This document shows, in pieces, positions 15,787 to 22,446 of a stretch of DNA of 23,054 nt. The position numbers were made by a program, and so were the translations under genes. The DNA lies in NCBI GenBank assembly GCA_048882045.1, contig JBHLRZ010000043.1, positions 1-23,054 on the forward strand. Direction: 5' to 3'. How positions within the stretch are numbered: the first letter of the stretch is position 1; the number at the start of each line of letters is the position of its first letter. The notes under the pieces were generated by a model. The model made no database searches and was not told where the DNA came from. It worked only from the letters and a program-made list of their open reading frames with translations. Source of the DNA: Candidatus Thorarchaeota archaeon (lineage in GTDB: Archaea; Asgardarchaeota; Thorarchaeia; Thorarchaeales; Thorarchaeaceae).

Positions 15787-15835
15787 TTACTACAGCAAAT
15801 GGTTCGGTCCAAAGATTTCTCTGGCTATGACGATC
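15787..15835 (-). repeat. Array repeat R7 (divergent allele, truncated)
   Basis: Minus strand IVIAREIFGPNHLL**. Seven synonymous codon changes versus R10 (GCC, AGA, GAA, ATC, TTT, CCG, TTG). Confidence 0.8.
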
Positions 15836-15887
15836 ATTTCACTCATGAACTATACATATACCCAAAGCGTGACTAAATTTGTCTGCT

Positions 15888-17387
15888 TCAAGACGCCAGC
15901 TCCTCATCAAGTATAAGCTGATCCAGCTCTTGAATTCGTTTGATGATTTTCCTCCTGAGTGTCTTCACACCACGTGAATCAGTGATTTCGAGAGCCTGAC
16001 GAAGAGTTCCTAGTGCATCTCTGAGCTGTCCCTGATTCTGGTAGAATTCTGATTTGAATAAAGCAGCATACATTCTTACACCAGGCAAGTTATGGTCTAC
16101 TGCATGTTTTTCAAGTTTGGAAAGCCATTGTCCTTGTGCATAACGTTCCATACTGTCTGGCGATTGATTGACAAGAAAGAGTTCAGCTTGTGCCAACCGA
16201 AGAAGAGAAAGGCTCTGACCCAAACAGGACTGACGGCGTTCTGTGTTTTCGTGAGTTTTTGTGATATAGTCGAGTGCAGACAAGTAATCACCTTTTGCTA
16301 GTTCAATCATTCCATATACGAGATCGTAACCACCCAAATGTGCTTCTGAACCAGATTTTAGTATCATCTCGTGTACATCATTGAGATAGCGTTCGGCCTC
16401 ATCCAATCTGTTCAATAATGCTAATGCCATGGCTTTTCTATAATATAATACTGGCAGCTCGAGATTTCCAGCATATTCGAAACCCATGTTCGCCCATTCA
16501 AGAGCTTGTTGACCATCACCTAACGTAGAATAGATCCTGGAGAGTAAATTGCAGCAGGTCACGTCCAGTCCTATCATCTCTATGGCCTCAAGATGGCTCG
16601 AAATTGCGAGATCGTATTCACCAGCTGTTTCATATACAATGGCAAAATCGTTCAAGACTTCCGCTAGTAGATAAGGTATTTCTAAATCCTGAACCAGATG
16701 ATACAGTTCTTCATAATGTGCTAATGACTCCTGAATATCGAAGGCTGAAACTGCAAACGCCTTGTTAAGGAGGTTCATGTACTTGTACAAAGAATCATTA
16801 TGTAACTCAGCAAGGTCTTGGCCTCTTTGGAAGAAATCAATGGCGTCCTTTTTGGCCCCTTCTCTGAGACTTGGCATCCCCTCGAATGCGTAAATTAATG
16901 GTTCAAAACAGTTCAATTTTGGATTAGCTTCTGTCAAGCTCCTTGCCTTTTCAAGTGGTTCAAGTAGACTGTCGATGTCACCGAAAAAAGGCCAATGATA
17001 GAACGCGTGGAGAAGATGTAGCTCGATCATCATCCAATCATCTAGGGTTGGTTCCATCGCTTTGTCTATTGCTTCAACAACCGCATCATGATACTCTTCT
17101 TGATCCTTCTCAGCAGTTCTGTGACCATATGCCCAAGGCCTTACGCACGGTACATCTCTGTATTTTTCTTGAATTAGCTTCATGTTTTCTTCTGTTCTAG
17201 TCCACCATGCATGAACTGCTGAAATATAGGCCAGATTAACTGATGCCTCATTATCCAGAACAAAGGAACTCAATCGTTGTACAAAATTATAGTAACTGCT
17301 TGATTCCTCCATGAGTGAATTCAAGATGGACTTGCTCTCTTCATCGATGAATGGATAGTACTTTGTGATTGTCCCCATCGGCTTCAT
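15888..17387 (-). CDS. Tetratricopeptide-repeat (TPR) protein
   Basis: Helical repeats such as A.VY...GEYDLAI..H..A and A.AL..LNR.DEA..YL. Likely start MKPMGTITKYYPF at 17387. Confidence 0.85.
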   Translation of the reverse strand: MKPMGTITKYYPFIDEESKSILNSLMEESSSYYNFVQRLSSFVLDNEASVNLAYISAVHAWWTRTEENMKLIQEKYRDVPCVRPWAYGHRTAEKDQEEYHDAVVEAIDKAMEPTLDDWMMIELHLLHAFYHWPFFGDIDSLLEPLEKARSLTEANPKLNCFEPLIYAFEGMPSLREGAKKDAIDFFQRGQDLAELHNDSLYKYMNLLNKAFAVSAFDIQESLAHYEELYHLVQDLEIPYLLAEVLNDFAIVYETAGEYDLAISSHLEAIEMIGLDVTCCNLLSRIYSTLGDGQQALEWANMGFEYAGNLELPVLYYRKAMALALLNRLDEAERYLNDVHEMILKSGSEAHLGGYDLVYGMIELAKGDYLSALDYITKTHENTERRQSCLGQSLSLLRLAQAELFLVNQSPDSMERYAQGQWLSKLEKHAVDHNLPGVRMYAALFKSEFYQNQGQLRDALGTLRQALEITDSRGVKTLRRKIIKRIQELDQLILDEELAS

Positions 17388-17489
17388 TACCACAGAACTC
17401 CTGACCAATCCAGACCATAGATACTCCTCAACACTTTGTGAAGAATGTAATGGTTCTAAGAATATCTTTGTAGTTGAAGAACAAGTAGG

Positions 17490-17510
17490 GAGAGAGGAAG
17501 ACCCTCTCTC
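17490..17510 (-). terminator. Terminator-like hairpin beside R8
   Basis: Perfect 8-bp stem GAGAGAGG-AAGAC-CCTCTCTC, 16 nt beyond the repeat's stop codon. Confidence 0.6.
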
Positions 17511-17526
17511 AAAATGAATTTTAACC

Positions 17527-17595
17527 CTACATCTGTTTCTCTTGCCTATACGGCAGAAAGTCAGGTCCGAAGATCTCGCGTGCCATGACGATTCT
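17527..17595 (-). repeat. Array repeat R8
   Basis: Minus strand RIVMAREIFGPDFLPYRQEKQM*. Only 2 differences from R10 over I..stop, both synonymous. Confidence 0.97.
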
Positions 17596-17733
17596 CGGCA
17601 GACTTATGTCAAAGTCATGAGAATAGCCTAGTCTGAATGTTGTCATAGCAATGACATATCTCATAGAGTCCTTAGGCCAATCTCAAGGAACACAGCGACT
17701 TCTTGTATTTCAACACAATTAGGAAAGGAGAGA

Positions 17734-20970: not shown

Positions 20971-21062
20971 AAATGATTATAGAAATGATTTTGTTATCTG
21001 GTTTTCGAATTCTTTTGGTTTGCACAAAGAAGAAAGGGATTCGTATCCCCTTCTTTCCAATT

Positions 21063-21134
21063 CTACATCTGTTTCTCTTGCCTGTACGGCAGAAAGTCAG
21101 GTCCGAATATCTCGCGTGCCATGACGATCTTCTG
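21063..21134 (-). repeat. Array repeat R10 (reference copy)
   Basis: 72 nt = QKIVMAREIFGPDFLPYRQEKQM*. Hairpin AAGAAAGGGAT-TCGT-ATCCCCTTCTT at 21030-21055. Confidence 0.97.
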
Positions 21135-21290
21135 TTAGTCGTTCATTGTGAGTCTGAAATAGAAGTTCTTCAAGGATGTGAATAGGATACTTTATGAGAT
21201 AGACCCAGCAGATTACTACAATGTAGGAAGAGGCTTTAGGTTCTGAAGTTCTCGTGCATAATACAAGCATCTGAAGAGGTTGAGTATAGA

Positions 21291-22154
21291 TTGAGAAGAA
21301 CATGGATGAATCTAGAAGCGATAAGAAGCACAGACATCCGGCGACTGCTTGAAAACTTGGGTCTTTCTGGAATGATCCTATATATCGCGATCGAAGCCAG
21401 TTGGGGTGTCGATTATCCAAGTTTTGTGGAATATATGAGTTATAGCCCTAATCTCTATAGATTGACTGACCAGTTGATAATAGCTCTTAGTCCATACATT
21501 AGTATTGGCAACCTGTTCTCTCTAGTGTTTGCTGGTTGCATGTTTCTTGTGTTTCAGTTTACAAAACATCGACGCATTGAATTGATTCTCATTACAATTG
21601 CTGCAGCTTTGACTTTCAAGGTTCGAAGTGCTGCTATGTATCCATTACTGCTACTTCTGGCAGTTACTGGAAATCCTTTGGTACTCATTCCGTTAGCCCT
21701 TGTAAAAGAACATGCGGTTATAATTGGTGTCCTCTATCTTCTTGTGTTTAGACGTGAAGTTCCATTTAGAAAAGTCGTACTTGGTGGAAGCGCTGCTTTT
21801 GCACTTTGGTCTTGTGTTGTTCTATTGATGGGCTGGACATCCGTACCCGGCCTTCCAACTGGTCTTGGCATAACGTCATGGTTGTTACATATACAGGAGT
21901 GGAGCCTCATGACAATAGGATTTAGAACCGTGATTCTTCTCCCATCAATCATACTTCTAATCCGGGACAAAAACAGTGGATTGTTTCTCGGACTATGTAT
22001 TATAGTTCTGATTCTTGTAGCTGATTTCTTTGAACCTCAACATTGGTTAGCACCTGCTGTTCCACTTAGTTGGGAGGCTGTATCGCGGATATCTCCGGAT
22101 GAATCAATACAATCAACCGAACCAGTATTTTCCGATAACACTGTCATGTCATAA
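21291..22154 (+). CDS. Multi-pass membrane protein, unknown function
   Basis: 287-aa hydrophobic ORF. Start uncertain (21291 or 21306). Its last codons overlap the relic at 22118. Confidence 0.7.
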   Translation: MRRTWMNLEAIRSTDIRRLLENLGLSGMILYIAIEASWGVDYPSFVEYMSYSPNLYRLTDQLIIALSPYISIGNLFSLVFAGCMFLVFQFTKHRRIELILITIAAALTFKVRSAAMYPLLLLLAVTGNPLVLIPLALVKEHAVIIGVLYLLVFRREVPFRKVVLGGSAAFALWSCVVLLMGWTSVPGLPTGLGITSWLLHIQEWSLMTIGFRTVILLPSIILLIRDKNSGLFLGLCIIVLILVADFFEPQHWLAPAVPLSWEAVSRISPDESIQSTEPVFSDNTVMS

Positions 22155-22289
22155 GAATGATCTACAAAGCTGTTACGAATAGTTTTTGTTGAAGAGGTTA
22201 TCATAGTAAAGACTTGAATGTGTGGCTGTGGTATGAGTGGAATATATTCAGAAGATATAGGATGAATTCTTGGACAAGAGCATGTTTCA
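22118..22289 (+). pseudogene. Relic of the 69-aa/502-aa gene junction (homolog of 5010-5171)
   Basis: CGAACCAGTATTTTCCGATAACACTGTCATGTC...TGGACAAGAGCATGTTTCA aligns with 5010-5171. Reads VEYIQKI*DEFLDKSMF versus VDYIQIVKDDFLDKSMF, then is truncated. Confidence 0.8.
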
Positions 22290-22374
22290 TTATACTTTGG
22301 ATCCTCGAGATATTTCCAGAATTGTTCGAAAAAAGAAGAATGGAGAGGGATGATTACCCTCTCATATAGATGAA

Positions 22375-22446
22375 TTATTCCATCTGACCCTTCTGACGAT
22401 AGGGTAGATATTCAGGTCCGAATATCTCACGAGCCATGACGATCTT
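22375..22446 (-). repeat. Array repeat R11 (divergent allele)
   Basis: Minus strand KIVMAREIFGPEYLPYRQKGQME*. Seven synonymous and two conservative codon changes versus R10 in the first 18 codons. Hairpin GAGAGGG-ATGATTA-CCCTCTC at 22343-22363. Confidence 0.93.

Follow-up and report, generated by a model that had tools for sequence, protein, structure and literature searches.

The stretch of DNA analysed here, called the window throughout, is the whole of one 23,054-nucleotide (nt) contig, C43, from the genome of a Candidatus Thorarchaeota archaeon (G000; 3.6 Mb in 93 contigs, 44% G+C), and its most conspicuous feature is a repeated unit of about 69 nt. The unit is present in ten copies, all on the minus strand, and successive copies are separated by one to three genes, which may lie on either strand. 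Translated from the minus strand, each copy gives (K)IVMAREIFGPDFLPYRQEKQM; a stop codon follows and, usually, a hairpin of the form GAGAGG...CCTCTC. A six-frame search of the whole genome found this tail peptide only on C43 and on a second contig, C56, where it is the true C-terminus of an intact 413-residue acyl-CoA dehydrogenase in which Pfam recognizes all three domains. The repeats are discarded copies of the end of this gene, comprising its last 21-22 codons, stop codon and terminator hairpin. On C56 the gene end itself, R0, is followed downstream by two further copies, Ra and Rb. The copies in the window, and the overlap that ties it to C56, are as follows.

3419..3451, minus strand: R2, a right-part-only remnant covering repeat positions 38-69, with the hairpin after it.
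7360..7401, minus strand: R3, left part only, positions 2-44.
12134..12200, minus strand: R4, a displaced tail with an internal stop.
13461..13527, minus strand: R5, a displaced tail, partly decayed.
15012..15078, minus strand: R6, a displaced tail, partly decayed, its stop lost (CAG where TAG is expected).
15791..15836, minus strand: R7, truncated to positions 2-47, peptide IVIAREIFGPNHLL and stop (nhmmer E=1.2e-4), a strongly recoded allele.
17527..17593, minus strand: R8, common allele, 4 nt from the working end R0, all synonymous.
19871..19937, minus strand: R9, common allele, 6 nt from R0, all synonymous.
21063..21130, minus strand: R10, common allele, 4 nt from R0, all synonymous.
22375..22445, minus strand: R11, a displaced acyl-CoA dehydrogenase tail, peptide (K)IVMAREIFGPEYLPYRQKGQME and stop, a chimeric junction.
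22978..23054, no strand: overlap with C56, 77 nt, exactly the reverse complement of the last 77 nt of that contig.

Because of this 77-nt overlap, the window can be joined to the intact gene and to three more copies, and the two contigs together hold 13 copies behind that gene, all in a single orientation with respect to it. Counting outward from the gene, the order is R0, an LRR cassette, Ra, a 132-residue membrane protein with a protein termed p519, Rb, a 138-residue membrane protein, R11, a 287-residue membrane protein, R10, a 340-residue membrane protein, R9, NosD, R8, a TPR protein, R7, a rhodanese, R6, glutamine synthetase, R5, an LVIVD protein, R4, three enzymes, R3, a 152-residue membrane protein with p502 and, further on, the R2 remnant. 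An earlier note made from the sequence of the window had placed R11 nearest the insertion point; it is in fact the fourth copy from the gene, with R0, Ra and Rb lying before it on C56. As one part of the joint explanation developed below, the window is probably the outer 23 kb of an array of cassettes that spans at least 37 kb behind a single acyl-CoA dehydrogenase gene.

The strongest result of our analysis is that the cassettes in this array were exchanged across species and genera long after the genomes that carry them had diverged. Between this genome and G004, a member of the same genus, synonymous divergence (dS) is 0.22 for the glutamine synthetase cassette, 0.19 for the LVIVD cassette and 0.36 for the rhodanese cassette, compared to 1.97 for RpoB and 2.2 for EF-2, both core genes. 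Between this genome and G089 and G091, which belong to another genus (g3), dS is 0.22-0.27 for the flavodoxin cassette and, for G089, 0.36 for the FMN-reductase cassette; for the same two genomes the anchoring acyl-CoA dehydrogenase stands at 1.06-1.5, while RpoB and EF-2 are saturated, with a third-position identity of 0.44-0.48. Cassette dS is thus 5-10 times below core-gene dS in the same genome pairs, and because cassette values of 0.19-0.36 stand against values of about 2 or saturation for RpoB and EF-2, the exchange must have been recent. The earlier proposal that cassettes cross species boundaries is borne out by this contrast, which carries it over genus borders as well.

The repeat is widespread in the family: 58 of 86 family genomes contain it, with up to ten or more copies each. 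Orthologues of the acyl-CoA dehydrogenase that are 81-95% identical occur in many of the family genomes searched, and paralogues of about 33% identity are found throughout. In 42 loci that we fetched, 201 copies are co-oriented within each locus with one exception, and 163 of the 201 share a common start at repeat positions 2-6. Copies that retain only the right part begin at positions 12-40 and those that retain only the left part end at positions 31-60, leaving an overlap of about 20 nt. Pairs of copies that share flanking sequence share it on the left only in 97 cases, on the right only in 76 and on both sides in just 3; cassettes are therefore shuffled as modules. The tail classes QEKQM, KQQ.. 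and KGQ.. are mixed within genera, and identity in windows of 33-36 nt is too noisy to show whether tail and gene body are discordant. A two-rate change-point analysis of the crossovers recovered only the outer edges of the repeat, the repeat itself being conserved, and per-position mismatches in cassette-sharing pairs show a weak trend only (n=14 and n=7). The anchor gene itself (L001, which is C56, 9945-11186) is at odds with the taxonomy: at the protein level, G091 and G089 of genus g3 are 95-96% identical to this genome, its congeners G012 and G005 are 90-92% identical, and another g3 genome, G029, is 82% identical (compared loci L059, L060 and L018).

The repeats also differ from one another in a manner that reflects their coding history. 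To score this, we took P as the share of random-substitution trials on R10, with the same number of nucleotide changes, that gave as few amino acid changes as observed. R11 differs from R10 by 14 nucleotides and 4 amino acids over 21 codons (P=5e-5), R7 by 13 nucleotides and 4 amino acids over 14 codons (P=2e-3), and the first ten codons of R7 by 8 nucleotides and 1 amino acid (P=6e-5). The bias is significant in each comparison, confirming that R7 and R11 diverge mostly at silent sites while keeping the peptide, and both peptides read as the earlier note gave them. Its separation of these two copies from R8-R10 holds for the degree of divergence and fails as a difference in kind, for R8-R10 provide no uniform baseline and have also changed at silent sites only. 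Ra, R10, R9 and R8 each lie 4-6 nt from the working end R0, and the 19 codons changed among them (18 sense codons and Ra's stop, TAG to TAA) leave the peptide unaltered. R0 and Ra alone differ at four sense codons and the stop, again without an amino acid change. R7 and R11 are extreme in degree and the same in kind as the other copies.

Relatives show the same signature. Among 114 full-length displaced copies from these genomes, diversity at codon positions 1, 2 and 3 is 0.20, 0.17 and 0.43, a three-base periodicity that upholds the earlier suggestion that these ends evolved as functional genes. The ratio of differences at positions 1 and 2 to those at position 3 is 0.16 for gene-attached ends and 0.43 for displaced copies, and in this array the damage to copies rises with distance from the gene. 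We conclude that the repeats are former working gene ends with decay superimposed, and not decaying copies of one duplicate. These figures also bear on the idea that copies are kept by selection in place, as a 19-codon mini-gene (MAREIFGP...QM) or as an RNA or terminator module for the neighboring cassette. Every common copy does have an ATG and an open 19-codon frame followed by the hairpin, and the frame is kept in 88 of the 114 displaced copies. Nevertheless, we consider this idea highly improbable, since constraint is relaxed after displacement (0.43 versus 0.16, with 8 premature stops and 17 lost ATGs among the 114), truncated copies are common, and the sequence is plainly the gene's own tail and terminator.

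The earlier note had further argued that decay in place cannot give a silent bias. This overlooks that the working end itself evolves on under constraint; the caveat is outweighed by the dS evidence. None of the acyl-CoA dehydrogenase paralogues of this genome has such a tail, so R7 and R11 do not match paralogous genes of the same genome.

The two divergent copies have different structures. R7 matches the repeat model solely over positions 2-47, and about 20 left-part-only copies like it occur across the family. Its stop is most simply explained by a TAC-to-TAG change. The left half is 88% identical to a displaced copy in G018 and 85% identical to one in G026, both from this genus; its identity to the working end of G007 is 76%. 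The rhodanese cassette also occurs in G004, where it stands behind an ordinary repeat and hairpin; homology with the window starts only about 55 nt beyond R7, so R7 does not travel with the rhodanese cargo. R7 is best viewed as a truncated copy of another heavily recoded allele. Its short tail is akin to those of short-tailed orthologues outside the family, a likeness that we judged coincidental given the many left-only copies.

R11 divides into two halves, with a terminator behind them.

22411..22445, minus strand: R11 left half, repeat positions 2-36, common allele, going with the gene-proximal 138-residue membrane-protein cassette.
22375..22410, minus strand: R11 right half, codons EYLPYRQKGQME and stop, a divergent tail allele of the 'KGQ' class.
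22343..22363, minus strand: terminator-like hairpin after the R11 stop (GAGAGGG, a 7-nt loop, CCCTCTC), belonging to the copied gene end.

Over positions 3-36, R11 shares 97% identity with Ra and with several of the common copies found in relatives, and its divergence lies wholly within codons 12-23. A homologous membrane-protein cassette is found in G021, a genome of the same genus (G021:C427), and an identity of about 95% to the window runs from the region upstream of this cassette through the left half of the repeat, ending after GGACCTGA. Because this identity stops in the middle of the repeat and the two halves differ in affinity, R11 is a junction: its left half belongs to the gene-proximal membrane-protein cassette, and its right half and hairpin to an earlier occupant of the site. 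The hairpin is of a type that also stands behind native gene ends in relatives. With a lenient aligner, the R11 terminator is 84% identical to an endonuclease-linked end in G015 and 81% identical to that of R0, a comparison that does not discriminate.

The affinities of the right half point outside the genus. Its four best matches, L110, L109, G084 and G031, are 75-78% identical and are all working gene ends with tails that read YRQKGQF(D/E); G031 belongs to genus g5 and G084 to g3, and the other two are Thorarchaeota metagenome-assembled genomes (MAGs) from a degenerate-codon scan. In about 40 arrays of relatives, all displaced copies are at most 69% identical to it. Outside this genome the RQKGQ... 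class was seen only on working genes, in four genomes, and it is absent among the working gene ends recovered for this genus. Additionally, the pattern EYLPYRQKGQ retrieved three native gene ends in Thorarchaeota MAGs, each attached to its gene. The right half of R11 is probably an older tail whose class is in use at working gene ends of other Thorarchaeota genera.

Searches for donors gave no close allele for R7 or R11 in the 86 family genomes, in a species-representative genome collection or in a metagenome collection. At the DNA level, the family genomes yielded at best 83% for R11 and 84-93% over 29-43 nt for R7; the best half matches were 78% for the right half of R11 and 88% for the left half of R7, where the matching sequences are displaced copies from this genus. 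Degenerate-codon patterns made from the complete R11 tail and from the R7 peptide had no match in the genome and metagenome collections. Comparing the alleles with target-gene ends of related MAGs, as the earlier note had proposed, thus placed the R11 class at the working ends of other genera, but with a best identity of only 75-78% and no exact donor. The notion that each repeat tags its donor is too simple, as the halves of R11, a recombinant junction, go with different neighbors. For the 287-residue cargo beside R11, one relative of 26% identity was found in the 86 genomes; it comes from a genome of g5, the genus in which the KGQ tail occurs, but is not adjacent to the dehydrogenase gene there. 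A 79% relative of this cargo is also present on a 1.1-kb contig. These relatives did not establish a correspondence between cargo and lineage.

These observations can be set against the strict form of the earlier model, in which an integrase inserts a self-contained unit whose whole repeat is a donor tag, as in an integron or tycheposon, and R7 and R11 are two distant arrivals. Such a model is in keeping with modular, repeat-bounded cassettes that are exchanged between species and with a divergent R11 half of a class at work in other genera, and the region around positions 25-47, where left-only copies overlap with right-only ones, could act as its recombination core. However, no tyrosine recombinase was detectable in the genome, in the array or beside the gene: PF00589 had no match of any kind in this genome (93% complete), XerA-like genes included, but matched 14 of 14 control genomes, and a Pfam search of the array and the surroundings of the gene found no integrase or tyrosine recombinase. 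R11, with halves of different affinities, is not one tag; in G004, the counterpart of the rhodanese cassette beside R7 has an ordinary repeat; none of the three collections held a donor; and the base composition of the cargo is ordinary for this genome, with no foreign signal. We regard the strict model as unlikely.

A second alternative is that the history was vertical only, with an old, inherited array in which R7 and R11 are old tails of its own gene and the bias comes from the working end evolving under constraint. A frozen copy compared with an evolving functional one is expected to show a partly silent bias, the rise of damage with distance from the gene fits an aging series, and the right half of R11 may well have served this lineage as its working tail until shortly before the proximal cassettes came. 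What makes a vertical history quite improbable is the dS of the cassettes, 5-10 times below that of core genes in the same pairs, and a cassette order that differs between species. Additionally, common alleles lie both nearer to the gene and farther from it than R11 and R7, which a simple age series does not predict, and the R11 tail class is present in other genera while missing from the recovered working ends of this one.

The account that we consider probable as a whole, the array included, is that tails were replaced through endonuclease cutting and homologous repair; the engine and the direction of events are inferred, on grounds that include the lack of a detectable integrase and, in relatives, a LAGLIDADG slot that lies between a recoded working tail and a displaced old one. 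Convergent open reading frames in the first slot behind the gene in G035, G015 and G029 score above the Pfam cut-off for LAGLIDADG_3, and the three proteins are homologous to one another. This endonuclease family adjoins the gene in these three genomes, with a relic in G020. In G035, the working tail linked to the endonuclease and the displaced tail differ at 9 of 21 sense codons and in the stop (TGA/TAA), with identical amino acids.

In the proposed mechanism, new DNA would enter at the gene end and bring a replacement tail, and the previous tail would be pushed downstream along with everything behind it. A putative LAGLIDADG endonuclease would cut the gene end, repair would proceed from a donor array, and displaced tails would provide the second homology arm, with accessory genes co-converted as passengers. 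Each tail would thus at one time have formed the enzyme's functional end, either in this lineage or in a donor, and because each had served in this way, tails would differ mainly at silent sites and take on damaging changes only after displacement. This is probably a tail replacement like that of the WHO elements and mobile open reading frames (mORFs) known so far from yeast and fungal mitochondria. A bolder version, which we put forward tentatively and would rate at somewhat under even odds in all its parts, is that the locus is a chromosomal gene-capture platform of Thorarchaeota, driven by a homing endonuclease and installing silently recoded, cut-resistant tails. The right half of R11 and R7 would then be fossil 'immunity alleles' left over from an arms race that pits nuclease specificities against recoded tails, and the array a dated record of gene flow across Asgard genera.

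Several findings weigh against the endonuclease account. This genome has no homologue of the LAGLIDADG family, and no relic lies beside R7 or R11. Across the family, the endonuclease occurs in 35 of the 86 genomes compared to 58 for the repeats, and most of its copies are elsewhere. The overlap of about 20 nt between left-only and right-only copies is unexpected from a single cut and resection and would suit a recombination core. For R7 and R11, the searches yielded no donor allele that exceeded 88% identity, the junction inside the repeat is mapped by one pair only (R11 versus G021), and the join of C56 to C43 depends on a k-mer-length overlap between two contig ends.

Other genes at the locus were considered as well. 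Just upstream of the acyl-CoA dehydrogenase gene lie two paralogous proteins of 533 and 550 residues, 39% identical to each other and with no family match (C56 5560-7161 and 8079-9731). A two-gene unit occurs three times in the array, pairing a 502- or 519-residue protein without a family match with a 132-152-residue membrane protein (window 5119-7302; C56 12249-14451; window 22118-23008). The two intact copies, p502 and p519, are 55% identical, and the third survives only as a 5' stub beside R11. We rejected p502/p519 as a recombinase or nuclease: the family is present in only 13 of the 86 genomes, mostly not beside repeats; searches of Pfam, NCBIfam and PHROG gave no match, and the protein is not similar to the LAGLIDADG proteins. 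An AlphaFold model (predicted local distance difference test score, pLDDT, 65) suggests a weak resemblance to tandem Lrp/AsnC-like modules such as those of the sirohaem decarboxylase NirDL/AhbAB. The stub and the cargo between R11 and R6 are as follows.

22118..22289, plus strand: p502-type gene stub, the upstream region and first codons, reading towards the R11 hairpin; the direct repeats D11 and D12 match 5010-5171 at 79-85%.
21291..22154, plus strand: R11-R10 cargo, the 287-residue membrane protein, with no family assignment.
19948..20970, minus strand: R10-R9 cargo, the 340-residue membrane protein, with a 53% relative in the G012 array.
17734..19791, plus strand: R9-R8 cargo, a NosD/beta-helix repeat protein (Pfam NosD, 1.4e-59).
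15888..17408, minus strand: R8-R7 cargo, a 506-residue TPR protein (Pfam TPR).
15119..15673, minus strand: R7-R6 cargo, a rhodanese-domain membrane protein (Pfam), 86% identical to G004 at the amino acid level.

The best relatives of the TPR cargo are 58-63% identical and come from the same genus. Its family is strongly expanded, with 15 matches in this genome, four of them in tandem on C48 (also C42), and many tandem sets in relatives. Glutamine synthetase, full-length at 440 residues (window 13564-14886), behaves as a mobile one-gene cassette and is 95% identical in amino acid sequence to the G004 copy. The CAG in place of TAG in R6 is also found in the G004 copy (L070 4081) ahead of the same glutamine synthetase cassette, and this mark appears to travel with it. 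At the distal end, the block at window 1-3309 comprises an FMN reductase, an SCP2 protein, an SCP2-membrane fusion and a flavodoxin/4Fe-4S protein, and it recurs as one multi-gene cassette in the arrays of G091 and G089 of genus g3. The uneven dS along this block (0.22-0.96) suggests a mosaic history.

Asgard archaea are the closest known relatives of eukaryotes, and their gene exchange is poorly understood. Because the repeats that punctuate this array are coding tails, their silent sites are informative, and the locus offers a built-in molecular record in which silent-site differences separate former working ends from decay in place. The contrast in dS reveals that genes have recently moved between species and between genera at one defined site. 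If a homing endonuclease and ordinary recombination do drive it, the array would be an integron-like gene collector on different machinery, and the counterpart, on an archaeal cellular chromosome, of the WHO and mORF elements of fungi.

Several known systems share parts of this design. Integrons and clusters of attC sites lacking an integrase (CALINs), which have been reported in Asgard archaea among others (Ghaly et al. 2022, PMC9668308), likewise consist of one-gene cassettes with a recurring element between them and a content that varies among relatives. In contrast, the repeats here are conserved copies of a coding tail, 80-97% identical in sequence, and not structure-defined attC sites (no attC finder was run), the cassette genes lie on both strands and there is no IntI. 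We rejected an integron reading for the lack of a PF00589 match. In the tycheposon islands at Prochlorococcus tRNA genes (bioRxiv 10.1101/2020.12.28.424599), successive arrivals at one site push older ones outwards, the island is punctuated by partial copies of the target 3' end, and the cargo consists of adaptive accessory genes; in a similar manner, repeats here bound every unit and damage to them rises away from the gene. Tycheposons, however, use tyrosine recombinases and tRNA targets, whereas this array has no detectable integrase and is anchored on a protein-coding tail.

The fungal systems are closer. mORFs that carry a C-terminus are known from atp6, atp9, cox2 and nad3 of Glomus mitochondria and from atp6 of Allomyces (Beaudet et al. 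2013, PMC3630166). There the element brings a foreign tail of 64-81% DNA identity that encodes a near-identical protein and leaves the native tail downstream, and its authors inferred horizontal transfer, as the earlier note did for R7 and R11 (PMC3630166). Those cases are single insertions into organelle genes with the endonuclease always present, in contrast to the more than ten cassettes with cargo found here.

The WHO homing elements that lie behind FBA1 in yeasts of the genera Torulaspora and Lachancea (Coughlan et al. 2020, PMC7282813) resemble this locus in still more respects. They form a row downstream of one metabolic gene, interspersed with 3'-end fragments in the same orientation that begin at a common position, as 163 of 201 copies do here at positions 2-6. 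With each arrival the gene receives a new working 3' end and its old one is displaced downstream; the end in use is chimeric and phylogenetically discordant, the downstream fragment provides a second arm of homology, and the enzyme belongs to the LAGLIDADG class. The differences are that the host here is an archaeon, that the fragments measure about 69 nt plus a terminator compared to about 400 bp in the yeasts, and that most slots hold unrelated accessory genes instead of endonuclease genes or their relics. Additionally, this genome is without the endonuclease, exchange crosses genera and cleavage is putative. We found no description of such arrays in Asgard archaea in the literature searched. 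Fungi already provide the principle; what is new is an array of this sort on an archaeal chromosome, whose cargo consists mostly of genes other than nucleases and is exchanged across genera.

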